A stretch of 42,417 nt of DNA from NCBI GenBank assembly GCA_043827405.1, contig JBDRPD010000091.1:1-42417 (forward strand), in the 5' to 3' direction. How positions within the stretch are numbered: position 1 is the stretch's first letter; every line of letters starts with the position of its first letter. The notes under the pieces were generated by a model, which did no database searches, was not told the DNA's origin, and was given only the letters and a program-made list of their open reading frames with translations. The translations under genes and the position numbers were made by a program. Shown here piece after piece: positions 7,342-36,002 of the stretch. The stretch is from Elusimicrobiota bacterium (GTDB lineage Bacteria > Elusimicrobiota > Elusimicrobia > UBA1565).

Positions 7342-8372
7342 CGCCGCCCCCGGCCGCCCAAACCCGACTCCTTGCGGTACTGCGCGACCGAGCGCCGCGA
7401 CAGATGAATCCGGTAGCGCTCGGCCAGCGTCCGGCACAACCCTTCATCGGAGAGCTGCGGCGCCGCGGCGGCCAGCTCGGCGACCGTTTCACGCGCGAGG
7501 CTCTTGGCGCTCGGGCACAGGACGCGCAGCGGCGCTTCGACGCCCCAAGGCAACTCCACCGCTTTTCGGGCGAGCAGCCGATTAATCACGCTCGGCTCGG
7601 AGTCCACCGCAACGGCAAGCGCGCGCTGCGTCAGCGGCTGCCGGTCGGCGGGATCACCGCTCAGAAAATATGCGGCCTGCGCCTGCAGCAGGCATTCGAG
7701 CACCTGATAGAGCGTCGTCTTGCGCCGGTCGATGAGCTCGAGACGGGACAGCAGGCGCCGCACGCGCTCCCGCTGCGTCGGGTCCAGGCCGGCGCAGCAG
7801 GCCGCGGCCCGCTCCGCGTCGATATGGTAGCGCCCCTTCCAAACCTCGCGGTTGAAAAACTGCAGGACCGGCCGGCCGCCCGCGACGCCGATGCCGGCGA
7901 CCGTACTGAACGTCACAACCGGAGCGGCGGGCGCCGGGTCCGCAAAGGTCTCGCGGACATACATGCGGTTGATGAAGTCGCGAACGCGGCGGACTTCAGC
8001 GGACGTCAGCCCCGTCTTCTTCGCCCGCTCAGCGTCCCGCATCCGCTCGCCGCCGAGGAAGCATTGCTCGAACTTCCGGCGTCCGACCCGGCGCAGAAGA
8101 CGGACCAGGTCCGACTTGCCGTCCAGAATCTCCGCCAGTCCGGTAGCGCGCGCCGCGAGGCTCAGCCCGGAAAACTTCCGCGTCGCGAAAAAAGCCCGGG
8201 GAAACGCCGTCACCCGCACCGCTCCCGCCGCCGTCAGCGCGGCGAACTGCGGCTTGGCTTCCAGCCCCGCCGCCTCGCGCGCGAGCTCGGCGTCGCTCAT
8301 CGTGAAAAGCCGCGCCAGCTTCATGCCCGCGAGCTGCTTGAGCGACGTCCGCAGCGCCGGCTTAACGGCCAT
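7338..8372 (-). CDS. Divergent, short RNA polymerase sigma-54 (RpoN)-like factor
   Basis: The C-terminus follows the RpoN ELH/HTH and DNA-binding domain (RRKTTLYQVLECLLQAQAAYFLSGD...PLTQRALA...EPSVINR...K...PWG...LSDEGL...SRRSVAQYRK). The N-terminus resembles region I. GGAGG precedes ATG 8372. Confidence 0.78.
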   Translation of the reverse strand: MAVKPALRTSLKQLAGMKLARLFTMSDAELAREAAGLEAKPQFAALTAAGAVRVTAFPRAFFATRKFSGLSLAARATGLAEILDGKSDLVRLLRRVGRRKFEQCFLGGERMRDAERAKKTGLTSAEVRRVRDFINRMYVRETFADPAPAAPVVTFSTVAGIGVAGGRPVLQFFNREVWKGRYHIDAERAAACCAGLDPTQRERVRRLLSRLELIDRRKTTLYQVLECLLQAQAAYFLSGDPADRQPLTQRALAVAVDSEPSVINRLLARKAVELPWGVEAPLRVLCPSAKSLARETVAELAAAAPQLSDEGLCRTLAERYRIHLSRRSVAQYRKESGLGGRGRR

Positions 8373-9675
8373 GCCCCGCCTCCAGCATCCGGCCCAGCCG
8401 CTTGGCCGCCTCGCCGTCGGGATCAAACGCGAGCGCGCGCGCCAGCTGACGCCGCGCCGCCGCGGTCATTCCCACACCGTGCAGCGCGAAGCCCTCCAGC
8501 GCGCAGGCGACCGACAGCTGATCATCCCGCGTCAGCTGAAAAAGAACCGGCGGATGCTGCTCCAAGCGCCGGATCGCGCCGCTCGCGGCGGTCCTCGCCG
8601 CCGCATAGCGCTTGCCGTCGAGCAGCAGCGAGGCGCGCATGAGCTCCGCTTCCGCGAACTCCGGCTGCCGGCGAGCGGCCTCCGCGAACCGGCCGAGCGC
8701 GTCGTTCCGGCGCCCGGCGGCGCCCGCGATCAGCCCCTGCCCGTAGCTCTCGATCGCCAGCCGCCATTTTTCATCCGCGTCGATACGTTCCGCGAGCGCG
8801 CCCGCACGCTCGGCCTTCCAGCCCTCCTTCCGGAGGTAGGCCGTAAACTCCGCCATCTTCGCCAAATCCTCGGCATAGCGCGCCAGCTGCCCGCGGCCCA
8901 GCGACTCGTAGAGCTTCTGCCATTCCTTGGTGAGAGCGAGAACCTCCCGGCGATGGCGCAGAGCGGCCCGCGCCTCCGCGGCGAGACGCCGCGTATCGCC
9001 CGCATTGAGCGCGCTCATCGCCGCGTCGAGCCGCATCACCTGGCCGTAGTCGTGATAGTGCAGCGCCGTCAGGTACCAGCCGATCAGGCTCCCGTCGCTC
9101 GCGGTACGGCGCCAGGCGCCTTGGCGCAGGGCGAGCAGACGCCGGTAGTATTCGTCGGAGACCTCGCGCCGGTCGAGTTCGAACGAGGTGACAAATACCA
9201 TCATATAGGCCTGCCAGGCGTTCGGGTTAACCGCAATCGCCCGCTTGAAGAGCTCCAGCGCCCGCTTCTTGCCTTCCGGGTCCTCGCCGGTATCCGTCTT
9301 CCAGGACAAGGACTGCCCTTCATCGATCAGCCGGCCCGCCACGTAGTCCTGGCGCACGATGGAACCGAGGAAAGTGAAAGGCAGCAGGAAGAAAAGAAAC
9401 AGCGTCGCGGCCGCGAGCAGCAGCCCGCGCATGCCGCGCGTAATGACGAGATAGGGCGGCAGCGCCAGCGGCCACAGAAGCATGGCCCACGGCCACAGCG
9501 CCGCGTCCTGCCCTTGCCCCGGCGCATCGCGGCGAATCCACCAGGCAAAGAACCCGCCCAGCACGACGCCCAGCACTCCCGCGCACAGCAGCGCCGGCCA
9601 GGACGGCAGCAGGATCAGCGCCAAGGCGCAGACGGCGCCGCCCGCTATCCCGCCGACGAGGCTCCGGTTGGTCAC
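8362..9675 (-). CDS. Membrane-anchored TPR protein
   Basis: About 4 N-terminal TM segments and TPR helices (ALELFKRAIAVNPNAWQAY; ARRQLARALAFDPDGEAA). Stop overlaps the start region of the sigma-54-like gene. Confidence 0.7.
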   Translation of the reverse strand: MTNRSLVGGIAGGAVCALALILLPSWPALLCAGVLGVVLGGFFAWWIRRDAPGQGQDAALWPWAMLLWPLALPPYLVITRGMRGLLLAAATLFLFFLLPFTFLGSIVRQDYVAGRLIDEGQSLSWKTDTGEDPEGKKRALELFKRAIAVNPNAWQAYMMVFVTSFELDRREVSDEYYRRLLALRQGAWRRTASDGSLIGWYLTALHYHDYGQVMRLDAAMSALNAGDTRRLAAEARAALRHRREVLALTKEWQKLYESLGRGQLARYAEDLAKMAEFTAYLRKEGWKAERAGALAERIDADEKWRLAIESYGQGLIAGAAGRRNDALGRFAEAARRQPEFAEAELMRASLLLDGKRYAAARTAASGAIRRLEQHPPVLFQLTRDDQLSVACALEGFALHGVGMTAAARRQLARALAFDPDGEAAKRLGRMLEAGHGR

Positions 9676-14623: not shown

Positions 14624-14846
14624 AGTAATGCTCCTTCGGCGATTATAACCAATGTATACATCGATACACAAAAAAGCGCAATAACAGAAATGTTAAAACA
14701 AGCGCGGCCGCCGCAGTTATTCCCGCGATCTAAAGTTCGGCACAAACCGCGCCCGAGAGTCCCAAAAACGCATAGGCCTCATAACTTTCGAGACCGGCCC
14801 TTGCGGCTCACCAACTTATGAAGAGTTTGTGCGAAGATAACACCGC

Positions 14847-17800
14847 ATGCAGCGAATTATTGCGGTACTCCTCACAGCGGCGCTTCTCCTTGCCGTCCCC
14901 GGACAACCCTGCTATGCCGCGCTCGGACGCGTAGCGGCGGGCACCTCGGCCGGACCGGCGGCCACCGGCGCGGCCGGCGCGGCGGGTCGCATCGGCGCCC
15001 ATGCCGCGCTCGGTGCGCTGCATACGCCGCTTTACTCCGCGACCCTCAACACCGCTCTTCCCTCGGTCGAGAACCTCCGGCTCCAGACCGCGGTCCAACA
15101 AGCCGCCGTGCGCGTCACGCCGCGGGGGATTGCCGGGCGGACATACGCGCCGCGCGGCAAGCTGGGCAAAACGATAGAGCGCATCACCGGTTCCGCTCAA
15201 CCGTTCCGCAAAACTATCGCAAAGCCGGCCGCCTCGGCCGGCCAAACCCACAGCGCCGGAACGGACCTGCAGAATCTTTTGAGCGGAGTACTCCATAGCC
15301 GCCGCGACTCCGCCGCGGTCCTGCCGCGCGTTGGTGCCGGACTGGCGGGCTTCAAGAGCGCGACGCCGGCCGGCCTGGGCATCGGCCGCGCTCGCTTGAT
15401 AAATTCAGCGCATCGCGGCGAGGTCCCGGGCGCCGCGGCGGATGCGCTGCAGGCCGCCGCCAAAACCACCCCGGCGGCGGCGGCCCTACGCCGCGCCTGG
15501 CACGCGCTTAAACGCGCCGTCCTGCGTCCGGTGCTGGGCCTCACGCTCCTAATATCCCTCATCGCCGCCGCCCCGGCCTTCCCCGATGTTAAGGTGGACC
15601 TCCTTGCCCAGCAGGGCACGCCGCCCGCGGGACAAACGGTCAGCCAGCAGGCGCCGGAAGTGATCATCGCCCCCATCGCGGCGGCGGTCAAGGTATCGCC
15701 GCAAAGCGTTACCGTGGGCGAGACCATGGAGCTGGAGATCACGCTGCGCAACAACGGCGGCAAGACGCTTGAGATTCCCTCCGTACGGGCGGCGGTTGAG
15801 CGGAGCCTTCCTTTCACGCTCGAGCTCCGCGGCCAGGAAGGCGTTGACGCGATCGAACTGGCGCCGGGAGAGTCGCGCACCGTGGTGCTGCGCGTCGCTG
15901 CGTTCGACGCCGGCGAGATCAAGCTCGAAGGCGTACGTATTTACCTGGGCGCTGACGGCTCGGTTATCGTCGTGCCGGACGCGGTATTCAAGGTCGATTC
16001 CGTCCTCACGCCGGACTGGAAGAAGAAGGGCTTTGAGGATATCGCCGAGATCCAGAAAGGGGAGACCCCGAATATCGGCTGGCTGTTCTCCATCCCGCTG
16101 GGCCTGCTGCTGCTCATCGGCGTCGAGCGCCTGCTGGCGTCGCGGCGCCAGGGCCGCAAGCCCAAGGTCTTCCTCCAGCCGCTGTGGGAAACAACCAGCA
16201 AACGCATAGGGGAGCTCACGCAGAACGGCGGCCGCCTAAGCAGCGCCGTCTTTTATGCCGAGGTCTACAATATCCTCGACACCCTGCTCATCGACCTGCA
16301 TGGCCTGGAGAAACGCGAGCGCGGCGCGGGCGAGCTGATCCGCGACATTGCGGGCGCGAAAAAGTATTCCAAGGAACAGCTCGCGCTCGCGCGCCGCATC
16401 GCCGAGACCGCCGAGGCCGTCCGCTTCGGAGGCGCGGCCGACAACAGCGAGCTGCGGCGGCGCACCCTGACCGCGCTCAACGCGCTGGCTGAAGATCTCC
16501 TGGCACCGGCGCCGCCGGCCGAGCAAGACCCCCCCTCCCTGCTGGGGTTGGGAGCGCTCTTTAGCGGCGGCGGCGCCGGCCTGTCTTTCGGTCAGCCTTG
16601 GGCCCTGCTGCTGGTTGTGCCGCTGGGCGCTTACCTGCTGTGGCGGATGTGGCGCAGCCCGGCATCGAGCTTCAAGGTATCGTCCGCCGATACGCTCCCG
16701 GGAAAAAGGACCTGGCGGCAGCGGCTGCGCTGGATGCCGAGCGCCCTGCGCATCGCCGCGGTGACTTTGCTGCTGCTCGCCCTATCGCAGCCGCGTATCG
16801 GCGTCGAGCGCCAGGAGACCTACGTCCCCTCGACCGACACCGTGATGTCGATCGACCTCTCAGGCAGCATGGACACCAAGTTCGGCACCGGCGATAAAAT
16901 CAGCCAGCTGGAAGCGGCGCGCAGCGCGGTAAAGGCCTACGTCATCGAGCAGCGGCGCGGCACGACCAACCGCGTCGGCATGGTCACCTTCGCCGACGAC
17001 TCCTACCAGGACGTGCGGCTCACCACGGACTACGACGCGCTGATCGCACACCTCAAAGAGCTCAAGACCTCCGGCTCCACGGCCGTGGGCAAGTCGGTTC
17101 TCGCCTCGATCACCCATTTTCTGGAAGTCAACGCTTACGAGCTCAATGATCCGGACGACCCGCGGATCAAGAAAGTACAGGAGCTGCTGGACAAGAAAGG
17201 TCTCGGCGAGGCGCTCGAGTACGCGAAAAAGCACTCCGACCTGATGCGCCGCATACTCCAGCCCGACCGGACCAAGATCGTGGTGCTGTTCTCTGACGGG
17301 GGCTCAAACACCGGCCTGTCCATGGCCGAGGCCGCCGATATCGCCAAGAAGCTCGGCGTCCGCATCTACACGGTCGGCATCAACACCTCGGGCACCGACG
17401 AAAAAAACCTCAAGGATATGTCGGAATCGACCGGCGGGCTTTACTTTCAGGTCGGCAACGCGGAAGGGATGCGGGCGGCGCTGCTCGACATCAGCCGGCT
17501 TGAAAAGAGCCCCTCCCTGGTTAAGTCCAAAATCGCGACCAAGGACTTCGGCAGCTACCTGCTGATGCTGGCGCTGCTGATGCTCGGCTTGGAGGTAACG
17601 CTCTCCTCCACCCGCATGCGCAGCCTCTCCGGCGTGGCGCTGATCGCCGCGCTTGGCCTGGCCATCCCCAATCCCGAACTAATCCGGCCCCTGACCGGCG
17701 GCGGTACGCCGATCGTCATGGCGGCCGCGACCACGGAAGCCCCCGCCAAGGCGCCGCTGAGCATCGTCGACCAGCTGCCGGTTTCCAAGATGCCGCGGGA

Positions 17801-20800
17801 GCTCGCCGCGGCCAACACCTTGTACCTCCAGGGGCGCTTCGATGAAGCGGTCAAGAAGTACGCGGAAGCCCTGCGCCGCTATCCGGACATCCCGCAGATT
17901 TACTTCAACACCGCCAACGCCCTCTACCGGCTGGGGGATTTCGCACGCGCGGCCAAGTACTACCAGGAGTACCTGAAGCACGTTAAGGACGACGCCGGCG
18001 AATCATCCAAGGTCTTCTACAACCTCGCCAACGCCGCTCTTATGCAGAAGGATCTAAGCCGAGCCATCGAGCTCTACCGTGAAGCCCTGCGCCGCAACCC
18101 CGGGTATACCGAAGCCAAGTGGAACCTCGAAGTAGCGATGCAGATGCTTAAGGAGCAGCAGAAAAATCAGCAAGGCAAAAAGGGCGAGGGCAAAGGCAAG
18201 AAGCAGAAGGGCAAGGGCCAGCCCGGCGACAGCGACGGCCAGGGCGAGCCCGGCGACAGCGACGGCGACAGCGCGCAAAGCGACGGAAAAGACGGCAAGA
18301 AGAGCCCGGGCAAGCCGGGCAAACCCAAGCAGGCCGAGCAAGCCGAAGGCGTCGACAAGCTCCAGAAACAGCAGGACAAAATCGAGAAGGAAGGCGACGC
18401 CAAGGCCCGCAAAGCCGTCCCGCGCAAAGGCTCCGGCATCTGGGGCTTGGCGGCGATCGCGCTGGCCGGGCCGGCGGCGCTGAGCTTCACCAACCCGGTG
18501 CTGCTGTGGAGCGTATTCGTCCTGGTTCCCATTATGGCCGGCCTGCTGATTTACAGCCTGCGTAAAAAACTGCAGGCCGCGCGCGAGCTGTCGGAGCTGG
18601 ACGCGCCGAAATCTTTCAAGGAATGGGCGGGACGACGACGCTGGACCACGAAATTCGCCCTGCTGCTGTCGGCGCTCGCGCTGTTCGCACTCGCGGCGGG
18701 CGATCCCATATTCGGCGAGCGCGATACACGCCTCAATTTCGGCGGCAAGGACATCATGATGGCGACCGATGTGTCGCGATCGATGCTCGGCGCCGAGGAC
18801 GGCCGCCACGAGCGGACCAAGGCCGAGCTCATGGAGTTCATCCGGCGCATGGAGGGCACCGACCGCGTCGGGCTGGTGGTCTTCGCCGGCAAAGCGCGCA
18901 CCGCCTCGCCGCTGTCGATCGACTACGGCAACTTCGAGTTCAAGATGCGCCGGCTGGAACGCGAGGCGCGTTCGCTCAACGGGGGCTCGGATCTGGCCGC
19001 CGCCATCGAGCACTCGATCCTCTCTTTCGATACGGTCAAGAAAATCGGCGACCGCGAGCGCATTCTTATCGTAATCTCGGACGGCGACATCTTCGAGCAG
19101 GAGCTCGAGAAAGTCATCCGGCTGGCCAAGAGCAAAGGAATTGCGATCTATACGATCGGCGTCGGCACCACCGACGGCACCCGAATCGCCCTGCCCGAGC
19201 AGGAGGGCGACAACGGCGAGACGCAGTACCTGATCGATGAGAAAACAGGCCAGCCGGCGCTCACCCGGCTCAATGAAAAAACCCTGCGCCTCCTTTCCCA
19301 CAGCACGGGCGGCGAATACTTCCGTGCGCAAAACGATTCGGGGATCAACAGCCTGCTCTCGCGGGTCGCCGAGCTGTCCAAAGGCACCGAGACCGACAGC
19401 GTGAAATCTCCGCGCAAGATCGCCGCCTTCTTTATGTGGCCGGGACTGGCGCTGCTGCTGCTCGAGCTGCTGCTGCCCGGCATCTCACCGCTCAGAAACC
19501 GGACGCGTACGCGCAAAGAGGGCCAAGACAAGGCGGGCAAAGCGACCGCGCTGCACGGAGCGGCGCTCCTCGGCCTGGCCCTGCCCTTAAGCTTCTGGCC
19601 GCAAGTGCTGCCCTTCGCCGCCCTCATCACGCTGTTCGCCGGGCTGATCCTTTACGACCTGCTTTCCCGCGGCGGAGCCGCGCGCCGAATTCTGGCCTGG
19701 GCGCACCGCGGCGAGCCGGCCGCGAACCTGGAACGGGACCTCGGCATCCTGTTCGACTCACCGGAGACCGGCAAGGAACGTTTTCGCGAAATGGACCGCC
19801 TGGAGCTGCGCAGGTTCCTGCGGGAGTGGCAAAGCGCCCCCGGCGAAGACAAAACGCGGCTGATCAACACCGCCCTCGGCGACCGGGAGCTGTGGCGGCA
19901 GAAGCTCACGACCGCCTATCTCGCGGCAAGCGTCCGGCCATCCAAGGACTCCGCCGAAACCGCGGACATGATTCTGGGAGCGCTCGCCGCGGCGGCGCGA
20001 ACGCACCTCGACCGGCTTGAGCCGGTCCTCAACCGCCTCATCGACCGGCGCGCCGAGCTGGCCTGGCTCAACCACCCGCTGCCCCTGCGGGCGCTCGCCC
20101 GTCTGGCGCAGCAAGGACTGAACCCGAAGCACGCGGCTTCGCGCGCGACGCTTCGCAGCCTGGCCGCCGAACCCGACGCCGCGGTACGGCAGGCGGCGCT
20201 GGCGTCCCTGCTGGGCATGCGGGCGCCGCCCAGCCGCCTCTCATGGACCAAACGCGCCGGCGTCACGCTGCTGGCGCTGGTCATGGCGGCGATGGTGATG
20301 CTCTCTTCCTTCTCGGGAATCAAGACCCTGGAGTACCGGACGATCCAGAAACAGGCGGTCCAGACCCAGCTTTCTATTTTCTTCGGCGACGACCTCTATA
20401 TCCTCAACGATAAATACGCGGACGCGCGCATCCAGGACGAAGTTGTTCCCGTTCTCAAACGCTGGCACCGAACCGATGCGGTAACACAGCAAGAGCTGAT
20501 GCAAGCCATCGCCGTCCTGCGCTCCTCGCCCGATCCGAAAGCCGACAATGTCCTCGAAGCGGTCTTTAAGCTGGCGGACATGCTGCCGCTGACCGTAGAG
20601 TCCGAGAACCTGCTGCTCAAGACGCTCATCGAGCGCGACAACGACCAGGTCTGGGAATTCCTGAAGCGCTACATGCAGGCGAACGCGAAAAATCCCATGG
20701 CGACCGGGCGCCTGCTGCGGATGATCCAGATCGGCGCCGAAGCCGGGAGCGACCGCGTTTTCGTCAACCTCTTTTACTTCCTGACCAGCCCGAGCCCGCA

Positions 20801-23800
20801 GGTCCGCGACCTGGCGGCCAAAGAGATCGGCAAATCGCTCAACGCCCCCACCCGAACGGATCAGTTCATCAAGCGCCTCAACGACGTCTCGACCCACCAC
20901 GCCGAGGATCCGTTCCTCCAGCTCTGGGTCCAATACTTCACTTTGGACCGCCTGATGCAGGCCGGCGCTGAATCGCTGTCATTGGACGAAGCCGGCAAGC
21001 TTATCGACCATGTCCTGGCGACCGCCCAGCGTATCGACATCCAGCGCGTGGAGGCCCTCAAACAGCTCAAGCCGGGACAGGAAGCCGAGCTGCCGCCGGC
21101 CCTGCAGGAGCAGACCGTCGCCATCCTGCTCAATGCCCTGCGCGGCGCCCAGCAGCGGGGCGCAATCTCCGCGCCGCTTAACTTAACGGTCATCGAGTCG
21201 ATCAACAAGCAGACCAAGAGCCTCATAGAGGAAGCCTATAAGCATTTCGCCGACCTGCACGAAAGCGAGCTCAAGAGCACCCAGGGCTCGTACCGGCTCG
21301 CGGATCTTAACAAGCTGCGGGAGGTCTTGGCGGAGAAGGCCGCAGCGATCAAAAACTCGAACCAGCCGCTGGCCAAGGAGTTTACCGCCGAGCAGCGGGA
21401 ATTCGTCGACCGGGCGCAGCGCGTGCTCTCCCACATGATCCCGGCGGCCGAGCTGGCGGGCATCCAGCCGGGCGGCACGGCGGGCGAAAAGGCGGCCGAC
21501 GAGATCAACCTGCTGCTCGTGGAGGGGCAGCAGAAGTTCGACGGCGACCAGTTCGTGCGCGCCCTGCGCCGGGCCGGGCTCGCGCCCGACGCCAATATCT
21601 CCGTCACCGCCGACAAGGGCTTCTACCAGAGCTACAGCCCCGAAGAGATCGAGAAGCTGCGCGGCTTCCTGCTGGAGCTGGTACAGAAGGATATCAGCTG
21701 GGAGACCAACGGCCAGCGGCGCTCGTTGGACTGGAACGAAAAGAAGTATCTCGCCGGCGCGCTCGAAAAGGTCGTCGGCATCCACACCAAGCACTACGCC
21801 GGAAACGAGGCGCCGACGGCCCAGGACTCCGCCACCGTCCTGCAGCAGCTGACCGCCCTGCAGGACGCGCTCAACGGCGGCGACCAGGCCGCCGCAGGCA
21901 AGGCCGAGAAAGCCCTGCGCGGCCTATTCGCCGACGCAGAGGATGCGGACCTCTTCCTGGCCAAGGTCGTCGCCGCCCAAGAGGCGCTGGCCGCGGGCCC
22001 GGCGGGCAAGGACGCGCGGGCCAATTTGGCGCTGCTGCGCTTCCTGGCGGCGCGCATCTCCGAGGGCGCGAACCTCCACGCGGAGGGGCTCAAGGAGGTT
22101 TTCGCGGACGCGCTGGAGGCCGCGCTGGACCATGCCGCCGCCCCGGACATCAAGCCCCTCCCTGACGCCGAGACCTGGACCGCGGTGCGCGACGCGCTCG
22201 CCGGCATTCGCGACAGCGGCCGCCCGGTCCCGGAAACGCTGACGGAAGCGATTCAAAAAGAGCTAAACGACCAGGCCGTGCTTATCGCCGACGGGGGCAA
22301 GGAAAAGTTTAAGGCGAACACTCCCGCCGGCGACAGGTACGACCGGCGGCTGCGCGAAGCGCGGATCTTCAAGGACAGCAAAACCCGCGACAAGTTCAAG
22401 CTGTTCCACCTGCGGGAGCTGCGGCAGGCAATCGCCGAAAGCGCCGGCGACGCGGAGTACGCCGCCGAGGCGGACGGGATCCTCGAGCGGATGCTCGAGA
22501 CCGCGCAGCTGGCCGGGGCGGCGGACGGCGGTTCGGTCAGCGAGCGGCTCGCCGAAGAGATGAACGACATCCTGTACGCCGGCTACATGGCCTATCCCGG
22601 CACCTACTTCAACGACATGCTGCGCGCGGCGAAGCTCGCCCCGGAAGGCGCCGGCAACGCCGCCGCCGAAGCGTATCACCAGAGCTACTCGCCCGAGACG
22701 GCGCGCAGGATCTACATATTCTACGAGGACATGCTGCGCTCAGGCCAGTATACGGGCGGCACCGGGAAGGAGAACCTGAGCGAAGCCCATAAGCTGCACC
22801 TGGCCGAAGGTCTGGAAAAGATCGCGCACCTGCTCGAGAAATTTCACCCGCAAGCGCTGGAACAGCTCGCCCCGCGGCCTTTCGGCATGCTATTCAGGAC
22901 GCTGGCGGACGGCGCTCCCGGCCTGCAGACGGCGCTCGACGCGGCCGCCGCGGACGGCTCGCTGCTGGCCCGGCTCGCGATAGTGCAGAAGCTCAACGAA
23001 AAGGACGCCCCGCTGCAGCGCCGCATCCTGCACCTGACGCTCGAGCGCCTGGGCGGAGCGCACGGCCAGCAGTACGCCGACGACGACCTGTCGATGCGGC
23101 TGCTCGACGGCACGGTCAAGGCCCTGCTGGACCGGGGCCAGCAAGCCGATATCTGGCAGCTGCTGACCGACGCCCTCAAGAGCGCCGAAGTCAAAGACGG
23201 CCTCTCCCGCATCGCGCAGGAAAAGGTGCACGACTACCTGACCGGCGCCATCACCGCGGCCGAGGAAGCCTTCCCCGTCAACGACGCCCTGGTCGAGAGC
23301 AAGGTGCGCGCCACCGCCACGGCGCAGCGCAAGAGCTTCCGCCTGATCCATATCACCCGCCTGCGCCGGATCATCCTTGACAGCGCGGCCGCGGCGGCCA
23401 AGAGCGGCGGCCTCTCCGCGCCGCAGAAGCTGGCGCAGGAGACGGCGGCCAGGGACCTGCCGCGCCTGCGCAAGCTCGCCGAGCTCAGCGGCATGCTCCC
23501 CGGCGACTCGCAAGGCGAGGTCGCGGCCGAAACGGTCAACACCCTCCTCCACGACGGCCACATGAAGTTCACCGGCCAGAACTTCGTCAAGTATATGCGG
23601 TCGCAAAAGCTCGCGGCGGACCAGAAAGCCAATCAGTCCGGCGGCATAACCTACGATCAGGAGCTCACCTGGCGCCAGTCCTATTCGACGGCGGAGGTCG
23701 CCGAAATACTCGCGCAGATGCGCGCCATGCTCAAGGGCGACGTGAGCTGGGATCATGAAGGCAAACCGCGCTCCCTGACGCCGGACGAGAAGACCCTGCT

Positions 23801-25007
23801 CGAGGGCGCGGTCAAGACGCTGGAGGGGCTGCTGGAGCATTATCCGAACCCGGCGCCCGAAGATAAAGCGAAGGTCGACGCCGCCGTGGCCCTGCGCGAC
23901 GCCGCGCCGGCCCCGGTCGATGCCGCGAGCGGCGCCACCGGCTTCCCCGCCTTCATCCCGGTTACCGCCGGCCTCACCGCGGCCTCATTTTCCATGCCGG
24001 CGTTCATCGGCGGCTGGCTGCCGGTGGTCGCGATCGCAGCCTTCGCCGCGCTGGGACTTTATCTCCTGGCCCGCTCTTGGCGCGGGCGCGGAAACACGAA
24101 CGAACAAGCCGCCGGGCGCGCGCCCGCAGCAGCCGAACCATCGGCGGAGGCGTTAAAGCGCTACAAAAGGCTGGAGATCGCCGCCCGCAAGATGGCCTCG
24201 GCGGTAACGGCCGGTCAGTTCCGCTCGCGGCTCGTCGGCGCCAGCGGCACGGACTTCGTCGAGCTCGCCGACTACCACAACGAGGACCGCAAAGCGATCA
24301 ACTGGAAGGCTTCGGCCAAGCGCGACGAGCTCCAGGTCAACCGCTACGAACAGCACAAGGACATGCCGCTGGTGCTGCTTATCGACGTCAGCGATTCCTC
24401 CGTCTTCGGCACGCGCGGCACCGACAAGAAGACGGTGATCGAAGATACGGCGGCGCTGCTGGCGCTCATGGCCTCGCATCTCAATATCCGCGTGGGAGCG
24501 CTGCTGTTCAGCGACCGGGTCGAGGAGTTCATCCCCCCCAAGAGCGGCAAGCGCCACGTCTGGCATATCCTCCGGCGGCTGATGCAGGCGCGGCCGGAGA
24601 GTACGGGAACGGACCTCAACGTTCCGCTCAGCTTCGCCCTCAAGCGCCTGCGCTCCCGGTCCATGGTCGCCATGGTCTCGGACTTCATCGCCCCGGATTA
24701 CGCCCGCAGCATGGGCGGCCTGTCCGAGCGCCACGATTTCCGGCCGATCCGCGTGACCGACCCGGCGGAGATGCGGCCGCTGCCCGACGTCGGCCTGCTG
24801 CGGACGCAGGACGCCGAGACCGGCGGGGAGCGCTGGGTCGACACCTCAAGCCGCGCCGGCCGCGCCGAACAGCTGGCCAATATCCGCGCCCGCGAACGCC
24901 GCATCGAGGACGCCTTCCACGCCGCGCGCACGCGTCCGGTTACCCTTTCGACTGAAACGGAATATATGGAAGAGCTGACGAAGGAATTTTCCGGAAAGAA
25001 GAAGTAA
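14847..25007 (+). CDS. Giant 3386-aa multidomain Bat/VWA fusion protein (signal+leader, Ig/DUF4381-like, BatA VWA, BatC TPR, BatB VWA, HEAT-like, 3x helical repeat, DUF58)
   Basis: Uninterrupted 10.16-kb ORF. BatA: LSFGQPWALLL (~16581), LALSQPR, MIDAS DLSGS, LFSDG. TPR plus Q/G/K-rich tail ~17800-18430. BatB: LSFTNP (~18480), DVSRS, VISDG, YTIGVGT. DUF58: GTDFVELADY...INWKASAK...LLIDVSDS...VSDF (~24150-25004). Confidence 0.9.
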   Translation: MQRIIAVLLTAALLLAVPGQPCYAALGRVAAGTSAGPAATGAAGAAGRIGAHAALGALHTPLYSATLNTALPSVENLRLQTAVQQAAVRVTPRGIAGRTYAPRGKLGKTIERITGSAQPFRKTIAKPAASAGQTHSAGTDLQNLLSGVLHSRRDSAAVLPRVGAGLAGFKSATPAGLGIGRARLINSAHRGEVPGAAADALQAAAKTTPAAAALRRAWHALKRAVLRPVLGLTLLISLIAAAPAFPDVKVDLLAQQGTPPAGQTVSQQAPEVIIAPIAAAVKVSPQSVTVGETMELEITLRNNGGKTLEIPSVRAAVERSLPFTLELRGQEGVDAIELAPGESRTVVLRVAAFDAGEIKLEGVRIYLGADGSVIVVPDAVFKVDSVLTPDWKKKGFEDIAEIQKGETPNIGWLFSIPLGLLLLIGVERLLASRRQGRKPKVFLQPLWETTSKRIGELTQNGGRLSSAVFYAEVYNILDTLLIDLHGLEKRERGAGELIRDIAGAKKYSKEQLALARRIAETAEAVRFGGAADNSELRRRTLTALNALAEDLLAPAPPAEQDPPSLLGLGALFSGGGAGLSFGQPWALLLVVPLGAYLLWRMWRSPASSFKVSSADTLPGKRTWRQRLRWMPSALRIAAVTLLLLALSQPRIGVERQETYVPSTDTVMSIDLSGSMDTKFGTGDKISQLEAARSAVKAYVIEQRRGTTNRVGMVTFADDSYQDVRLTTDYDALIAHLKELKTSGSTAVGKSVLASITHFLEVNAYELNDPDDPRIKKVQELLDKKGLGEALEYAKKHSDLMRRILQPDRTKIVVLFSDGGSNTGLSMAEAADIAKKLGVRIYTVGINTSGTDEKNLKDMSESTGGLYFQVGNAEGMRAALLDISRLEKSPSLVKSKIATKDFGSYLLMLALLMLGLEVTLSSTRMRSLSGVALIAALGLAIPNPELIRPLTGGGTPIVMAAATTEAPAKAPLSIVDQLPVSKMPRELAAANTLYLQGRFDEAVKKYAEALRRYPDIPQIYFNTANALYRLGDFARAAKYYQEYLKHVKDDAGESSKVFYNLANAALMQKDLSRAIELYREALRRNPGYTEAKWNLEVAMQMLKEQQKNQQGKKGEGKGKKQKGKGQPGDSDGQGEPGDSDGDSAQSDGKDGKKSPGKPGKPKQAEQAEGVDKLQKQQDKIEKEGDAKARKAVPRKGSGIWGLAAIALAGPAALSFTNPVLLWSVFVLVPIMAGLLIYSLRKKLQAARELSELDAPKSFKEWAGRRRWTTKFALLLSALALFALAAGDPIFGERDTRLNFGGKDIMMATDVSRSMLGAEDGRHERTKAELMEFIRRMEGTDRVGLVVFAGKARTASPLSIDYGNFEFKMRRLEREARSLNGGSDLAAAIEHSILSFDTVKKIGDRERILIVISDGDIFEQELEKVIRLAKSKGIAIYTIGVGTTDGTRIALPEQEGDNGETQYLIDEKTGQPALTRLNEKTLRLLSHSTGGEYFRAQNDSGINSLLSRVAELSKGTETDSVKSPRKIAAFFMWPGLALLLLELLLPGISPLRNRTRTRKEGQDKAGKATALHGAALLGLALPLSFWPQVLPFAALITLFAGLILYDLLSRGGAARRILAWAHRGEPAANLERDLGILFDSPETGKERFREMDRLELRRFLREWQSAPGEDKTRLINTALGDRELWRQKLTTAYLAASVRPSKDSAETADMILGALAAAARTHLDRLEPVLNRLIDRRAELAWLNHPLPLRALARLAQQGLNPKHAASRATLRSLAAEPDAAVRQAALASLLGMRAPPSRLSWTKRAGVTLLALVMAAMVMLSSFSGIKTLEYRTIQKQAVQTQLSIFFGDDLYILNDKYADARIQDEVVPVLKRWHRTDAVTQQELMQAIAVLRSSPDPKADNVLEAVFKLADMLPLTVESENLLLKTLIERDNDQVWEFLKRYMQANAKNPMATGRLLRMIQIGAEAGSDRVFVNLFYFLTSPSPQVRDLAAKEIGKSLNAPTRTDQFIKRLNDVSTHHAEDPFLQLWVQYFTLDRLMQAGAESLSLDEAGKLIDHVLATAQRIDIQRVEALKQLKPGQEAELPPALQEQTVAILLNALRGAQQRGAISAPLNLTVIESINKQTKSLIEEAYKHFADLHESELKSTQGSYRLADLNKLREVLAEKAAAIKNSNQPLAKEFTAEQREFVDRAQRVLSHMIPAAELAGIQPGGTAGEKAADEINLLLVEGQQKFDGDQFVRALRRAGLAPDANISVTADKGFYQSYSPEEIEKLRGFLLELVQKDISWETNGQRRSLDWNEKKYLAGALEKVVGIHTKHYAGNEAPTAQDSATVLQQLTALQDALNGGDQAAAGKAEKALRGLFADAEDADLFLAKVVAAQEALAAGPAGKDARANLALLRFLAARISEGANLHAEGLKEVFADALEAALDHAAAPDIKPLPDAETWTAVRDALAGIRDSGRPVPETLTEAIQKELNDQAVLIADGGKEKFKANTPAGDRYDRRLREARIFKDSKTRDKFKLFHLRELRQAIAESAGDAEYAAEADGILERMLETAQLAGAADGGSVSERLAEEMNDILYAGYMAYPGTYFNDMLRAAKLAPEGAGNAAAEAYHQSYSPETARRIYIFYEDMLRSGQYTGGTGKENLSEAHKLHLAEGLEKIAHLLEKFHPQALEQLAPRPFGMLFRTLADGAPGLQTALDAAAADGSLLARLAIVQKLNEKDAPLQRRILHLTLERLGGAHGQQYADDDLSMRLLDGTVKALLDRGQQADIWQLLTDALKSAEVKDGLSRIAQEKVHDYLTGAITAAEEAFPVNDALVESKVRATATAQRKSFRLIHITRLRRIILDSAAAAAKSGGLSAPQKLAQETAARDLPRLRKLAELSGMLPGDSQGEVAAETVNTLLHDGHMKFTGQNFVKYMRSQKLAADQKANQSGGITYDQELTWRQSYSTAEVAEILAQMRAMLKGDVSWDHEGKPRSLTPDEKTLLEGAVKTLEGLLEHYPNPAPEDKAKVDAAVALRDAAPAPVDAASGATGFPAFIPVTAGLTAASFSMPAFIGGWLPVVAIAAFAALGLYLLARSWRGRGNTNEQAAGRAPAAAEPSAEALKRYKRLEIAARKMASAVTAGQFRSRLVGASGTDFVELADYHNEDRKAINWKASAKRDELQVNRYEQHKDMPLVLLIDVSDSSVFGTRGTDKKTVIEDTAALLALMASHLNIRVGALLFSDRVEEFIPPKSGKRHVWHILRRLMQARPESTGTDLNVPLSFALKRLRSRSMVAMVSDFIAPDYARSMGGLSERHDFRPIRVTDPAEMRPLPDVGLLRTQDAETGGERWVDTSSRAGRAEQLANIRARERRIEDAFHAARTRPVTLSTETEYMEELTKEFSGKKK
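21190..23850 (+). repeat. Three internal protein repeats (~330-350 aa period) in the giant ORF
   Basis: Core A[EQ]L[AS]G..G...E..A[DE]..N.[LI]L..G...[FY].G..F...[LM]R...LA...QSYS. QSYS starts at 21627, 22680 and 23676. Confidence 0.85.
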
Positions 25008-25019
25008 GGAGCGAATATA

Positions 25020-26885
25020 ATGAACGCACGAACTCTAAGCAGCATCCTAAAAAAAGGAACAGCGGCGGCGCTGGCCCTCTGCCTGAACCTTATCCCCGGA
25101 CACGCCGCTTTCGCCCGCGTAATAAAAGTACGGCTTAACGGCGCGGCCGGCATGAATGCCCCGGCCGTCCAACTGCGCATGGGCACCGCCGCCGGCATCG
25201 CGGCGACCGCCGCCCTGGCCGACGTCAAGCTGGGAGCCGGCGTGCTTCCGACGGTGAGCTCTATCGCTTCGCCCAGAGCCGCGGCGCCCGGCGCGATCAG
25301 CGTCCATGCCGCCGGCCAGGTCAAGGCCATCGCTCCCGCGACCGTCCAGAAGACCGTCAAGACCCGCGCCGTCGTCAGCGCGGAAATGACCGGCATGAAA
25401 AAACAGATCGCCGCCCTGCCGCAGGCCGAGAAGACCTCGACCGGCAAGGCCTACGGCGCGGGCCTCGCCCTCGAGGCCATCCTGACCGGCCGCCGGAGCC
25501 ACTCCTTCGGCGGCCTGGTCCGCGGCCGCGACGCCTCGTTCACCGAGGGCTTCGCTCCCACGGTGCATCTAGAGATCGCGGCGGCGCGCGCCGCCAAATC
25601 CGCCATGGTCCCGCTGCCCGCCAAGTCGGCGGCGGCCAGGGCGAAGTCCTTCCTGACGTCGAGGCGGGGCATCCTCGCCGTCGTGGCCGGCGCCGCCGTG
25701 GCCACCACCGCGGGCATGATCGTCCTGCAGCTCTACATGCCGGCCATCATCGGCTCGCTCGGCCTGATCGGCATGACGGGGACTCTGTGGGGCAAAAAGG
25801 ACAAGGATAAGGAGCAGTCCGCCCCCCTCCCCGAGGGAGAGCCCGCTCCGGCTTACGCGCACGAAGCGGACGGCGCATCCTACAATACCGCGCCCGACGC
25901 CGCGCTGCAGGAGGCGATCGCGGGGATGAGCGGCACGATTTCCGCGCTCAAAGCCGAGATCCGGCGCGTCATCGTCGGCCAGGAAGACATGGTCGAGTCC
26001 ATTATCGTCGCCATGATAGCCGGCGAGCATATCCTGCTCGAAGGCGTGCCCGGCGTAGCCAAGACGCGCACGGTGCAGGCCTTCGCCGACGCCACCGGCG
26101 CCGACTTCCAACGCATCCAGGGGACTCCGGACAAGATGCCGGCCGACATCCTGGGCGCCGAAGTTCTGCAGACCCAGGCGGACGGCACGCGCAAACTGGT
26201 CCACGAGAAGGGTCCGATCTTCGCCCGCGTGGTGCTCTTCGACGAGATCAACCGCGCCATGCCCAAAACCCAGTCGGCGATGCTCGAGGCGATGCAGGAG
26301 CGCAAGGTAACCATCGGCCGCGAGACCTTCGACCTGCCCAAGCCCTTCCTCCTGCTCGCGACGCAGAACCCGATCGAGCAGGAAGGGACCTACCCCCTCC
26401 CGGAGGCGCAGCAGGACCGCTTCATGTACAAGATCGTCGTCCCGCAGCCGACGCGCGAGGAGCGCAAGAAGATCAACGAGCTCAACCGCAAGAAGGAGAA
26501 GGTCAAGACCGAGCAGGCGGTCGAGGTCGACGAGCTGGTCCGCGCCACCGAGATCGCCGAGCAGGTACGGCTCGATCCCGCGCTGCAGGACTACATCCAG
26601 GACATCATCGACGCGGCGCTCGCCCCGCATGAGATCGGCATCGGCACGGAAGGCATCGTGGAGCAGGCGATGATCACGCGCGCTTCCATATTCATGGAAA
26701 AGGCCGCGCGCATCCACGCCTTGATGCAGGGACGCTCCTACGTGACGCCGCAGGATATCCGCGATATCGCGCCGAAGATCCTGCGCCACCGCATCATCCT
26801 GAGCTATGCGGCCGGCGAGCGGACGACCGACGATCTGATCCGGGAAATCCTGCACCGGCTGCCGGTCCCCGGCCCGCAAGGCTGA
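25020..26885 (+). CDS. moxR: MoxR-family AAA+ ATPase with ~300-aa N-terminal signal/leader/TM extension
   Basis: VIVGQ, Walker A GVPGVAKT, Walker B VLFDEINRA, ATQNPIEQEGTYPLPEAQQDRF, ILRHRI. AAGGAG RBS, 12 nt after the giant ORF. Confidence 0.92.
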   Translation: MNARTLSSILKKGTAAALALCLNLIPGHAAFARVIKVRLNGAAGMNAPAVQLRMGTAAGIAATAALADVKLGAGVLPTVSSIASPRAAAPGAISVHAAGQVKAIAPATVQKTVKTRAVVSAEMTGMKKQIAALPQAEKTSTGKAYGAGLALEAILTGRRSHSFGGLVRGRDASFTEGFAPTVHLEIAAARAAKSAMVPLPAKSAAARAKSFLTSRRGILAVVAGAAVATTAGMIVLQLYMPAIIGSLGLIGMTGTLWGKKDKDKEQSAPLPEGEPAPAYAHEADGASYNTAPDAALQEAIAGMSGTISALKAEIRRVIVGQEDMVESIIVAMIAGEHILLEGVPGVAKTRTVQAFADATGADFQRIQGTPDKMPADILGAEVLQTQADGTRKLVHEKGPIFARVVLFDEINRAMPKTQSAMLEAMQERKVTIGRETFDLPKPFLLLATQNPIEQEGTYPLPEAQQDRFMYKIVVPQPTREERKKINELNRKKEKVKTEQAVEVDELVRATEIAEQVRLDPALQDYIQDIIDAALAPHEIGIGTEGIVEQAMITRASIFMEKAARIHALMQGRSYVTPQDIRDIAPKILRHRIILSYAAGERTTDDLIREILHRLPVPGPQG

Positions 26886-33472: not shown

Positions 33473-34831
33473 ATGATGAATGATCCTCCCAAGAAGGAAA
33501 AAAAGGAGGACGGACCGCTATTCATAGGTTCCGCCCTCGCAAAATCGAAGCCGATATCTTCTGTCCCCCCCAAGGACGCGAGCGGGGGCGGGATGGAGGA
33601 ACTTGTCATTAAACCCGCCGCGCCGGCGGACGACGGCGGGAAGGAAGAACTCGCTGCCGCCCCCCCGCCCGCAGTCAAAGAAGAGAAAAAAGCGGCGCCC
33701 TTACCCGCATCCGGCGTCGGCGACAAGCTGCGCGCGACGTTCTCGCGCCCAAAGCGGACATATAAAGATGAGCTAAAAGAGGTCCTGGCGGCGAAGGAAG
33801 AAAAGCCCGCCGCGCTCGCGCAGTGGAGCAAAAAGAGCTTCGCCGATGCCCCCGAGATCGGCGCCGTCGCCGCCGGCGGGAATCCCGCACAATACGGCGC
33901 CGCGGCGAAGCTGAAAGGCTTCATGCACCGCCACCCCCTGCTCTCCATTTCGGTGATCCTCATCGCTCTCGGCATCGCCGTCGTCGATATTCTGGTTCTG
34001 ACCCGCCATCTGAGTATGGGACGGCTGCGAGCCATCGCGTTCGGCGGCGACACGCGTCCGGTCATCCCCGCCGCGCCCATGGACAGCCGCGACAGCGGCC
34101 TGAGCCTGCTCGAGCGGGGCCTGTACGCCGAGGGCGAAAAGACCGATGCCGGGACCGCCTCGGCCATCCAGGGGACCAACCAGCTGGCGGGCGGCCTCAG
34201 GCCGGCGGGACTGCCCGCCGGGCTCGGCGGCATCGCGAACCCGGAAGACGAAGATGACAAAAAGAAACTCAAGATGCTGGGCAGCATTTCACTGGACGCC
34301 AGCGGCATGGACACCAGCGGCTCCGTTTCCAACATGGGGCGCACCCAGATCAAGAAGTCCGAACAGGACGACTTCACGCCCTACGGCGGCTCCGCGCCGG
34401 GCGACGTCAAGACGGCGAAGGCACCGACCGGCGTCTACTTCGGCGACGCGGGCGAGAACCTGGATAATTTCGCGGATGTCGGCGGCGTCCGCAATTCGGG
34501 CAACGGCGCGGTCAAGGCCGTGGACAACTCCGAGTTTCCGACCGTCCCCGAAGGCCTGCGGGGCGCCGAGCTGGTCAAGTCCATGGTCGGCGACGATCTG
34601 ATGCAGGAGATGAAGAACTACGCCAAAGAAGGCACCTGGCGGATGCGCCGGGCGCCCGGAGCCAAGCAGAACGTTCCGGGCCTGCCGGCCGACGGGATGG
34701 CGGGCAGCTTCGCCGCCAGCCAGCTGCTGGAAACCAAGCGGCTGACCGACCGGGCCCTCAACTGCCCGACGTGCAAGAACGAGGACCGGATCAACCTGAA
34801 CCGCGCGACGTTTTATGGCGAGAAATACTAG
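33473..34831 (+). CDS. Single-TM low-complexity hypothetical protein with C-terminal CxxC
   Basis: Charged N-terminus, TM (LLSISVILIALGIAVVDILVL), Gly/Asp-rich region and NCPTCK. Confidence 0.65.
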   Translation: MMNDPPKKEKKEDGPLFIGSALAKSKPISSVPPKDASGGGMEELVIKPAAPADDGGKEELAAAPPPAVKEEKKAAPLPASGVGDKLRATFSRPKRTYKDELKEVLAAKEEKPAALAQWSKKSFADAPEIGAVAAGGNPAQYGAAAKLKGFMHRHPLLSISVILIALGIAVVDILVLTRHLSMGRLRAIAFGGDTRPVIPAAPMDSRDSGLSLLERGLYAEGEKTDAGTASAIQGTNQLAGGLRPAGLPAGLGGIANPEDEDDKKKLKMLGSISLDASGMDTSGSVSNMGRTQIKKSEQDDFTPYGGSAPGDVKTAKAPTGVYFGDAGENLDNFADVGGVRNSGNGAVKAVDNSEFPTVPEGLRGAELVKSMVGDDLMQEMKNYAKEGTWRMRRAPGAKQNVPGLPADGMAGSFAASQLLETKRLTDRALNCPTCKNEDRINLNRATFYGEKY

Positions 34832-35900
34832 GCGCGGGAGGAACGACCGGGGACAGATTCTGATCCCCGCGCTTTTCGTCCTGCCGTCGCTGGTACTGAT
34901 CGTAATCCTCCTGGTGGAGACGGGGAACCTGTCGCGCGCCAAGATCCGCCAGCAGTTCGCCCTCGACGCGGCCGCCACCGTCGAGATGGAGCTTTATACC
35001 GACACCCTCAACCGCCTCGCCTACCTCAACGGCGTCTTCCCCGACCGCATCTTCCGCGAAGTCTACGGCCTGGCCAATACCCATTACGGCGGTTCGGGGC
35101 TCTATCCCAGCGCGGTCGAAGAGTGGGAGGAAAAAGACGAAGTCTGGCCGATACGCTACGCCGGCTTCCGCTCCTACGCCAATACTCCGAACCCGCCCCT
35201 TAATTTCGGCATCCTGCACACGCATATGCCGGGCGGCGGCCTGGTCACCCTTGATCATGCCAGCAAAATGGCCGTCGACTATATCCAGGTCTACCGTTGG
35301 CTGGGCAATGTCGCCACCTCGCAAAAACTGGTCTTCGAACATACCGTGCGCGATCACGGAATGCTGCGAAAATCGATGTATATGAACCTGCGCGAAAACG
35401 AGCAGGGAAGCTCGTTAAGCGCCTGCGCCTCCGGCGAAGACAGCTGCGGCAACGACTCGGCGAGCGACTTTCTCGACATCGACATCCGGATGCACTACCT
35501 GTCCGGCTTTAAGCACTGTCCGGTCATTGTCCCCGTGGGCGGGACCACCCTCGTCGGCGAGCTCGCCGGCGCCTTCAGCTTCACCGGCTCCGGCCTATGG
35601 CAGCTGGCCACCGTACCGCCCAGCCAGATCGCGGAACTGGAGCGGGGCTATGTCGTGAAGCATCACTGGGAGCCGCCGCGCAACTTCTTCCGGGTCAACT
35701 TTGTGGAAGAGGAAAAACAGGACGTCTACAAGAAAGACACCGGCAATATCGAGGATTACCAAGCCAGCAATGCGGGATATAAAGTCGTGTTCAAAGACTC
35801 GCAGACCGGCGGCCCCTATGTCCGCGCCCGCGTCAGCTCGTCGGGCGGGCGCGTATGGCCGGACACCACGCCGAACTACCGCACCCGCCTGCACCCCTAA
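34815..35900 (+). CDS. Tad/Flp-type pseudopilin-like protein
   Basis: Class III-like leader RRGRNDRG|QILIPALF..., followed by ETGNL...KIRQQFALDAAA, typical of the Tad N-terminus. Confidence 0.7.
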   Translation: MARNTRRGRNDRGQILIPALFVLPSLVLIVILLVETGNLSRAKIRQQFALDAAATVEMELYTDTLNRLAYLNGVFPDRIFREVYGLANTHYGGSGLYPSAVEEWEEKDEVWPIRYAGFRSYANTPNPPLNFGILHTHMPGGGLVTLDHASKMAVDYIQVYRWLGNVATSQKLVFEHTVRDHGMLRKSMYMNLRENEQGSSLSACASGEDSCGNDSASDFLDIDIRMHYLSGFKHCPVIVPVGGTTLVGELAGAFSFTGSGLWQLATVPPSQIAELERGYVVKHHWEPPRNFFRVNFVEEEKQDVYKKDTGNIEDYQASNAGYKVVFKDSQTGGPYVRARVSSSGGRVWPDTTPNYRTRLHP

Positions 35901-36002
35901 CGCAACGGCAAACGGCCGTTGATCGACGCCGTTGACGCGAATCAATCCGCTCACTGGACAGCGGTCATATGCCGCCCGCTGGCGGCGCGTTATACTGTGG
36001 CT

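Follow-up and report, generated by a model that had tools for sequence, protein, structure and literature searches.

Two adjoining genes of an uncultured bacterium raise the question of where their products go. The genes lie on a 42,417-nucleotide stretch (the window), which covers positions 1 to 42,417 of contig JBDRPD010000091.1 (C91) in the genome of an Elusimicrobiota bacterium of the order UBA1565 (assembly GCA_043827405.1; 4.33 Mb, 63% G+C, 98% complete). ORF A (14847..25007, 3,386 aa) and ORF B (25020..26885, 621 aa) are both on the plus strand and are separated by a 12-base gap. ORF A is a fused duplicate of a Bat operon with Pfam matches to BatA, vWA (twice), TPR and DUF58, and ORF B is a MoxR AAA+ ATPase preceded by a hydrophobic stretch. 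Both begin with a predicted signal peptide and a long leader. This leader is found on many other proteins of the genome, nearly all of which have lost their cysteines, and it is tentatively read here as an address for delivery into a second cytoplasm.

Distribution and structure of the leader

The proteome scan proposed in the preliminary description supports its idea of a portable leader, which is carried by 63 proteins of unrelated cargo types. An iterated hidden Markov model (HMM) of the first ~95 residues, used with a threshold of E<0.005, matched 61 proteins in the genome, and the best reversed decoy had an E of 0.11. The working set of 63 tagged proteins, from which two signal-only matches were dropped and to which two borderline proteins were added by hand, is a lower bound on the number of tagged proteins. 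Outside the 63, further cysteine-free proteins that start much like the leader or have cargo of the tagged type are encoded at C99:25743-37835, C7:16169-20554, C53:132388, C108:84808 and C43:2-3604 (contig and position).

The leader appears to be a property of the order. Among 201 genomes from across the phylum the profile was positive in 11, which are the present genome and 10 of the 11 others of the order. It was positive in none of the 189 genomes outside the order, where tags may be too diverged for the profile to see. Within the order 58 of 86 genomes matched at E 1e-7, including some that supplied training rows. A search of 1.84 billion proteins gave 141 hits, all of them N-terminal, and the ten nearest named relatives of ORF B are all labelled Elusimicrobiota or members of Elusimicrobiota. 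The best ESM Atlas scores (0.86 and 0.85) belong to hypothetical clusters most frequent in Elusimicrobiota, which is a lead only. No description of the leader was found in the literature searched, including searches on the phylum, and the announcement of a UBA1565 genome reports no such tag (PMC9476967). A record titled Candidatus Endomicrobium trichonymphae (L024) has the tagged module and is nested deeply within the tagged MoxR proteins of this order; its label may be wrong.

In ORF A the leader begins with signal 1 (aa 1-25, 14847..14921), which has a basic n-region, a hydrophobic core, PG and a YAA end with predicted cleavage. The AlphaFold2 model places helices at residues 2-16 and 20-32 of this region. 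A spacer rich in Ala, Gly and Pro follows (14922..15164); it contains GAAG and L-x-LP elements, has few acidic residues and is predicted to be disordered. A predicted basic helix (aa 107-124, 15165..15218; modelled as 107-116 and 118-124) then precedes the motif (aa 129-147, 15231..15287), which has a predicted helix at 131-146. Signal 1 of ORF B (aa 1-32, 25020..25115) ends in AFA, also with predicted cleavage, and its motif, placed from the translation and the MoxR leader alignment, is at aa 139-157 (25434..25490). Modelled from a 67-row leader alignment with a mean column identity of 19%, the leader has no fold (pTM 0.28) beyond helix 131-146 and the helices at 107-124 ahead of it.

The preliminary description had reported both 19-residue segments at these positions, which are correct, and had allowed that the motif might be confined to this pair; it is present in other proteins and in homologs. 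The motif is therefore real and recurrent, but the consensus first given for it is the rarer spelling (called G-type here), and the usual end is [LFM]FD[GN]. The leader end PG-x3-[YF]A, followed by a tract rich in Ala, Gly and Pro, likewise occurs in both proteins but does not hold as a general signal, since PG-x3-[YF]-x(0-1)-A is found in just 13 of the 63 tagged proteins.

The pair alone does not rise above its Ala-rich background. The score of the two 19-residue segments (7 identities, BLOSUM 37) was attained in 96 of 1,000 shuffles, and the best BLASTP match of ORF A to ORF B had an E of 2.3, which is not significant. Profile-profile comparison of the two ortholog sets aligned the motifs, but with a probability of 2.5 and an E of 0.018, and a word-index search with the MoxR leader returned only its self-match. 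A position-specific scoring matrix (PSSM) was trained on 19 MoxR orthologs of other genomes with the present genome excluded. It placed the best site in ORF A at aa 123-148, with a score attained in 4 of 3,000 shuffles; this is a modest result, since 14,226 N-terminal regions were ranked genome-wide and the site came 13th. A de novo Gibbs search also found the FDG motif, but its scores in shuffled runs (486-542) overlapped those of the real runs (538-641), and for this reason reliance is placed on the pattern and PSSM tests.

The G-type and FDG spellings are, on the alignments, one element that differs in length by about one helical turn, because the orthologs of ORF A and one MoxR ortholog exchange one for the other. 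The pattern P-x(2-3)-K-x-S-x(3)-A-x-G-x-G-x(2)-LE-x-A-x-T is conserved in 13 of 14 aligned MoxR leaders, and the remaining one has FDG. Nine aligned leaders of ORF A and its orthologs comprise three of G-type (ORF A and two of the same family) and six with [LMAS]FDG at the aligned place. Strict patterns, which were composed after examples had been seen, matched 34 of the 63 tagged proteins (26 FD-type and 8 G-type), with shuffle means of 0.65 and 0.02. Among the 1,513 ORFs without a tag, the same patterns matched 50 (FD-type) and 1 (G-type). In the tagged proteins the median distance from the signal core to the end of the motif is 151 aa.

Cysteine, topology and cargo of the tagged proteins

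The tagged proteins have almost no cysteine. Past residue 45 the content is 0.029% and 53 of the 63 have none at all. The corresponding contents are 0.96% for the 1,513 ORFs without a tag and 0.58% for 310 untagged ORFs that a crude rule picked out as signal-bearing. In paired domains the counts are 1/5,536 for tagged and 37/4,788 for untagged copies. The MFS domains have no cysteine in 6 of 6 tagged proteins and between 1 and 9 in 13 of 13 untagged ones. The loss extends to proteins that played no part in defining it: 93 library hits of at least 300 aa, from outside both this genome and the training set, have 16 cysteines in 68,720 residues, and 79 of them have none. The most cysteine-rich tagged protein is a deaminase fusion with three, which are probably retained zinc ligands. 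In ORF A and ORF B the sole cysteine of each is inside signal 1; that of ORF A is unconserved across 67 leaders, which does not fit a lipobox for signal peptidase II (SPase II). The available part of one study gives cysteine exclusion as a known response to oxidising export routes in the exported proteins of some bacteria (PMC2823432).

Signal 1 has the layout of a Sec/SPase I signal, from which translocation and cleavage are predicted. By pattern test, 56 of the 63 have Lys or Arg in the n-region, and 61 end in a loosely defined A-x-A-like site. No 19-aa window of the spacer exceeds the transmembrane (TM) threshold in any of the 63 proteins, so that a return TM is impossible. The tagged MFS transporters are in conflict with this. 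In all eight the leader runs on to the first MFS helix without an intervening TM, and MFS N-termini lie on the cytoplasmic side. Based on this known topology, with 10 of the 12 helices located and the missing two adjacent, 109 Lys and Arg residues lie near the helices on the leader side versus 13 on the other side.

ORF A presents the same conflict in another form. Behind signal 1 it has a second, internal segment resembling a signal peptide (aa 215-246, 15489..15584), with four Lys or Arg before it and one after. Of the 12 near-full orthologs of ORF A, which are 40-44% identical to it, 11 conserve the segment and the twelfth is cut by a contig end; five have an A-x-A site followed by Q. The later TMs are compatible with vWA outside and DUF58 inside, and an extracytoplasmic vWA has been demonstrated for Borrelia BB0173 in the part of that report available (PMC5700661). 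Given the polarity of all eight MFS proteins and the second signal in ORF A, the leader end of the tagged proteins must, as far as sequence can tell, lie in a cytoplasm-like space despite the signal peptide that precedes it. This topology point is new in the present analysis, and together with the near-total loss of cysteine it points to passage out of the cytoplasm.

The cargo is largely of a kind that works in a cytoplasm or its membrane. Pfam hits were obtained in 37 of the 62 tagged proteins scanned. They include two ClpB-type ATPases, LonB, MoxR, PPK2, adenylate kinase (ADK), glycogen synthase (GlgA) and two amylases; RNB, a uridine kinase with cytidine deaminase, HD, Fic, ATP-grasp, PLD and endonuclease I; proteases of the S8, M3, M28, M48, M50, CAAX and HtrA types; and MFS, ABC, SDF and MscS membrane proteins. 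The outside hits (65 scanned, 400-1,500 aa) contain the same classes and also PspA/IM30, Bax inhibitor-1 (BI-1), MutS, M16 and S41. On a crude scale, no TM is predicted between the leader and ADK, PPK2, GlgA, RNB or LonB. For 18 of 27 cargo domains tested the genome has an untagged paralog.

ORF A and ORF B show this duplication well. The preliminary description took the two cargoes to be unrelated, and this is incorrect, as MoxR and DUF58/vWA/Bat are parts of one operon type. Contig C70 of the same genome has an ordinary untagged operon of MoxR, DUF58, BatA and BatB-TPR, whose genes match pieces of ORF A at 23-38% identity; since the duplicate is complete there, ORF A and ORF B are parts of one module. 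In a quick tree with midpoint root, the tagged MoxR proteins group in a clade of their own (24 rows, SH-aLRT 98), to which the genome's three untagged MoxR proteins do not belong. A pattern test finds Walker A intact in 17 of 18 MoxR proteins, and ORF B has intact Walker A and Walker B as well as the conserved motifs that follow them.

The tagged genes also seem to be regulated together. The motif TRGG(N)CC / GG(N)CCYA occurs at least twice upstream of 30 of 48 tagged genes versus 113 of 1,153 controls; the count covers genes with a non-coding upstream region, and these regions also served to derive the pattern. It is mostly 60-120 bases ahead of the start. In other genomes the orthologs of ORF A have 3-8 copies in 7 of 7 examined, and the sole strict copy in the window, TAGGCC (14773..14778, plus strand), is ahead of ORF A. 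The motif is likely a regulator site. Eight small secreted proteins with 2-12 cysteines have xFDQG or a similar string directly after the signal peptide (C76:2440, C54:33544, C54:105600, C53:180309, C83:191066, C83:188494, C54:39610 and C99:18856), and six of the eight have the same upstream motif at least twice. The xFDQG start may be another tag of this regulon.

Possible destinations of the tagged proteins

The favoured reading, to which a probability of roughly 0.45 is assigned, is that the leader is a two-part export address by which second copies of cytoplasmic enzymes and of membrane proteins leave the cell and enter another cytoplasm, probably in a prokaryote that serves as host or prey. 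It is favoured because it is the sole account that joins the signal peptide, the cysteine loss, the nucleotide-dependent cargo and the N-in polarity. In this scheme Sec would export the unfolded chain and signal peptidase would remove signal 1, after which the chain, now beyond the inner membrane, would neither fold nor form disulfides. The motif helix would then be read by a channel. In the target, soluble cargo would run on local ATP, and membrane cargo would be inserted N-in by the target's own machinery, in the case of ORF A by means of its second signal peptide. ORF A and ORF B would there rebuild a complete MoxR-Bat chaperone module, and with the Bat genes fused into a single chain, one tag would suffice for all of them. 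The bacterial type of the internal signals and the envelope quality-control cargo suggest a prokaryotic target. Parts of the scheme have precedents: in the available text of two reports, glycogen enzymes are secreted by Chlamydia (PMC4829429) and membrane effectors are extracted from the inner membrane of the producer (PMC11602083). The preliminary description had likewise proposed an uncharacterised secretion route to a host or prey cell; the cysteine loss and the topology indicate the passage out of the cytoplasm, but delivery stays an inference.

The most plausible candidate for the channel is a machine of the type II/type IV pilus/Tad class, since markers of the type III, IV and VI secretion systems (T3SS, T4SS and T6SS) are missing. 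The 98% complete genome has no FHIPEP match for the T3SS export gate (FlhA/SctV) and none for the T6SS sheath protein VipB. It has no PF03135 match for the T4SS protein VirB4, a family that was detected in just one of 14 controls, and the search did not extend to Dot/Icm genes. Of the type II secretion (T2SS), type IV pilus and Tad parts, it has three secretins, 20 T2SSE-family matches over the cut-off, 15 pilin N-termini and a Tad locus, along with six Omp85 proteins and LpxC (E 5.6e-90). Neither the C-terminal domain of the type IX secretion system (T9SS) nor curli families were among the Pfam hits of the tagged proteins; the Por and CsgG machines themselves were not searched for. A screen for a second SecA with a sequence pattern gave one match only and is weak, because the SecY and Ffh patterns found nothing.

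Co-occurrence with secretion or pilus genes, which had been suggested as a check, gave a divided answer: RcpC is present in all 11 tag-positive genomes, but its presence in 166 of the 201 makes this unspecific. Six FliG_C matches (C49, C54, C99, C42, C52 and C68; L132-L137) occur in the present genome, which has no flagellar export gate, and FliG_C is nearly absent from two large families with small genomes (0/61 and 1/60).

Three other explanations have to be weighed. The tagged proteins might be tethered, with segment 1 untranslocated and holding them in their native topology at the cytoplasmic face, or a patch, of the producer's own inner membrane, and the cargo would then act inside the cell that made it. 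This would explain the ATP dependence and the N-in polarity of the MFS proteins and ORF A with no new machine, and it agrees with the intact catalytic motifs. It is rather unlikely, since the segment has the layout of a signal peptide in nearly all of the 63 proteins and the spacer has no return TM. It also leaves unexplained the second signal peptide behind the first and a 33-fold cysteine loss that reaches the TM helices. Ordinary Sec export to the periplasm or surface, with the motif acting in a floppy linker as a pro-peptide, as a cleavage element or as one that delays folding, would suit the low column identity, the missing globular fold, the chance-level match of the motif pair and the cysteine exclusion seen in the exported proteins of some bacteria. 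The other signal-bearing proteins of this genome have 20 times more cysteine than the tagged ones, however, and the MFS transporters would be upside down with respect to the positive-inside rule. Moreover, ADK, PPK2, GlgA, ClpB and MoxR require nucleotides, which a normal periplasm does not contain, and ordinary export is thus very improbable.

An exported proteome might instead be kept by its producer, in an ATP-supplied space beyond the inner membrane, in internal offspring, or in a vesicle or resting body with an alpha-helical membrane, where tagged PPK2 and adenylate kinase would supply ATP. This would also cover the cysteine loss, the duplication and the co-regulation, and there is no known host. 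The cargo is also as much maintenance as attack (Clp/Lon/MoxR, MscS and glycogen synthase here, PspA/IM30 and Bax inhibitor-1 elsewhere), but the same cargo fits the task of keeping a hijacked cell intact. The presence of LpxC implies that the outer membrane is probably an ordinary lipopolysaccharide (LPS) membrane, and it is therefore unsuited to MFS, since such membranes do not hold alpha-helical MFS proteins. No internal compartment is described in the literature searched on this group, and a compartment of this kind is considered unlikely.

Several observations count against delivery into another cell. Its main weakness is that Sec should release a multi-pass protein into the membrane of the producer. 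To our knowledge there is no precedent for a 12-TM transporter or other many-TM protein that crosses SecYEG without such release; related feats are reported only for Sec-independent systems (PMC6110835, PMC11602083). No dedicated channel, chaperone or host was identified in this analysis. Two candidates for a dedicated machine were rejected: RcpC of the Tad system does not track the tag (166/201 versus 11/201 genomes), and the FliG-type rotor is found in 71 of 201 genomes (FliG_C) but not in the tag-positive G025. A crude polarity test on the first TM of all proteins was null (15 versus 11 of 29, p 0.22) and its control misbehaved, and it was replaced by the MFS test. The helix hydrophobicity of the tagged MFS proteins is slightly lower, which is not significant (p 0.087, 6 versus 13). 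A strict motif match is missing in 29 of the 63 tagged proteins, and the HtrA, S8, M28 and endonuclease I cargo is ordinarily exported and does not need a second cytoplasm. Finally, the genome of 4.3 Mb is not reduced, and a UBA1565 genome from a non-axenic amoeba culture was read as that of a diderm aerobic heterotroph (PMC9476967).

With delivery into a second cytoplasm still preferred, a fuller picture can be proposed with some hesitation and at less than even odds. The order may export a co-regulated, cysteine-free second proteome through Sec and a channel into another prokaryote, whose cytoplasm and membrane would be remade as a feeding compartment, and ORF A would be a Bat operon packed behind one tag. 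This proteome would comprise ATPases of the chaperone type, kinases that regenerate ATP, nucleases, proteases, enzymes of glycogen metabolism and complete 12-TM transporters. If true, this would be a bacterial sorting route by which multi-pass membrane proteins and machines driven by ATP pass from cell to cell, and it would give a predatory or parasitic lifestyle to a large uncultured order so far read as free-living. Tethering or an internal compartment would still mean a rule of sorting, or a compartment, that has not been described before. Three handles for cargo listing and direct reporter tests are provided by the tag, the lack of cysteine and the DNA motif ahead of the genes.

Remaining features and comparison with known systems

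The order of parts in ORF A is leader, second signal, a putative Ig-like region, BatA, vWA, TPR, a second vWA, an unannotated helical region and DUF58. The N-terminal TM pair of BatA and the first vWA (16584..17516) contain an intact DxSxS metal ion-dependent adhesion site (MIDAS) motif. The TPR repeats (17799..18143) are a Pfam match, and the second vWA (18750..19385) is BatB-like by Pfam and by its match to the C70 gene. DUF58 (24285..24887, Pfam) sits past the last TM, whose C-side is basic. A short Gly/Ala/Leu segment is conserved in the 12 orthologs at each junction between fused Bat subunits (aa ~563-583, 1197-1217, 1570-1590 and 3030-3055), with the frequent pattern G-L/V-H/W-G/A...A-P-L. 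These segments may either be TMs, restoring parity, or be sites at which ORF A is cut as a polyprotein. In ORF B the hydrophobic stretch (aa 218-258, 25671..25793) has basic residues at both ends and is likely a hairpin; it is missing in many orthologs, in which MoxR directly follows the leader. The AAA_3 (MoxR) core is at 26028..26426 (Pfam, E 3.5e-57).

Elsewhere in the window, positions 33473-36839 contain a gene with a TadE/G-like N-terminus (34815-35900, E 1.8e-4), flanked by a Pro/Gly-rich membrane-anchored protein and a secreted protein, and this is a possible minor-pilin locus. On the minus strand are a 362-aa protein with a sigma-54 DNA-binding domain only (7341-8426) and an untagged gene resembling Bax inhibitor-1 (41102-41851); a tagged BI-1 is present in the outside protein P0111.

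Among known systems, the Sec/SPase I signal peptide shares with signal 1 the basic n-region, hydrophobic core, Pro turn and A-x-A-like end. The leader differs in adding a spacer of ~110-130 aa and a conserved helix, and in its cargo of cytoplasmic enzymes and N-in transporters. Two-step signals such as curli CsgA N22, the T9SS C-terminal domain, Plasmodium PEXEL and plastid bipartite peptides likewise combine a signal peptide with a second portable element on unrelated cargo. The cargo here is different in that it includes ATP-dependent enzymes and multi-pass membrane proteins, and no machine like those of the two-step systems was identified.

The Bat operon, including Borrelia BB0173 as far as the available text describes it (PMC5700661), has the same domains as the present module, in which the MIDAS motif of the first vWA and the MoxR motifs are intact and the vWA polarity is compatible. 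Here, unlike there, the Bat proteins are fused into 3,386 aa, both products are tagged and cysteine-free, and they form a separate clade beside the untagged operon. Effectors of T3SS and T4SS include membrane proteins and glycogen enzymes that are sent past the membrane of the producer (PMC6110835, PMC11602083 and PMC4829429, from the portions available); those systems use Sec-independent signals, and their machine markers are without match here.

The giant proteins of Omnitrophota (10.1101/2023.11.21.568195; 10.64898/2026.06.07.730766) are similar in that signal peptides and TMs occur on chains with metabolic domains, N-terminal regions lack known domains, and predation has been proposed. The available texts describe no shared leader motif ('leader' and 'motif' each occur 0 times in that of 2026, and 'leader' 0 times in that of 2023), and the supplements may bear on this. 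The tag described here differs further in being carried by many mid-sized proteins, and it may be relevant to why, in giant proteins of related phyla, cytoplasmic enzymes come with signal peptides.

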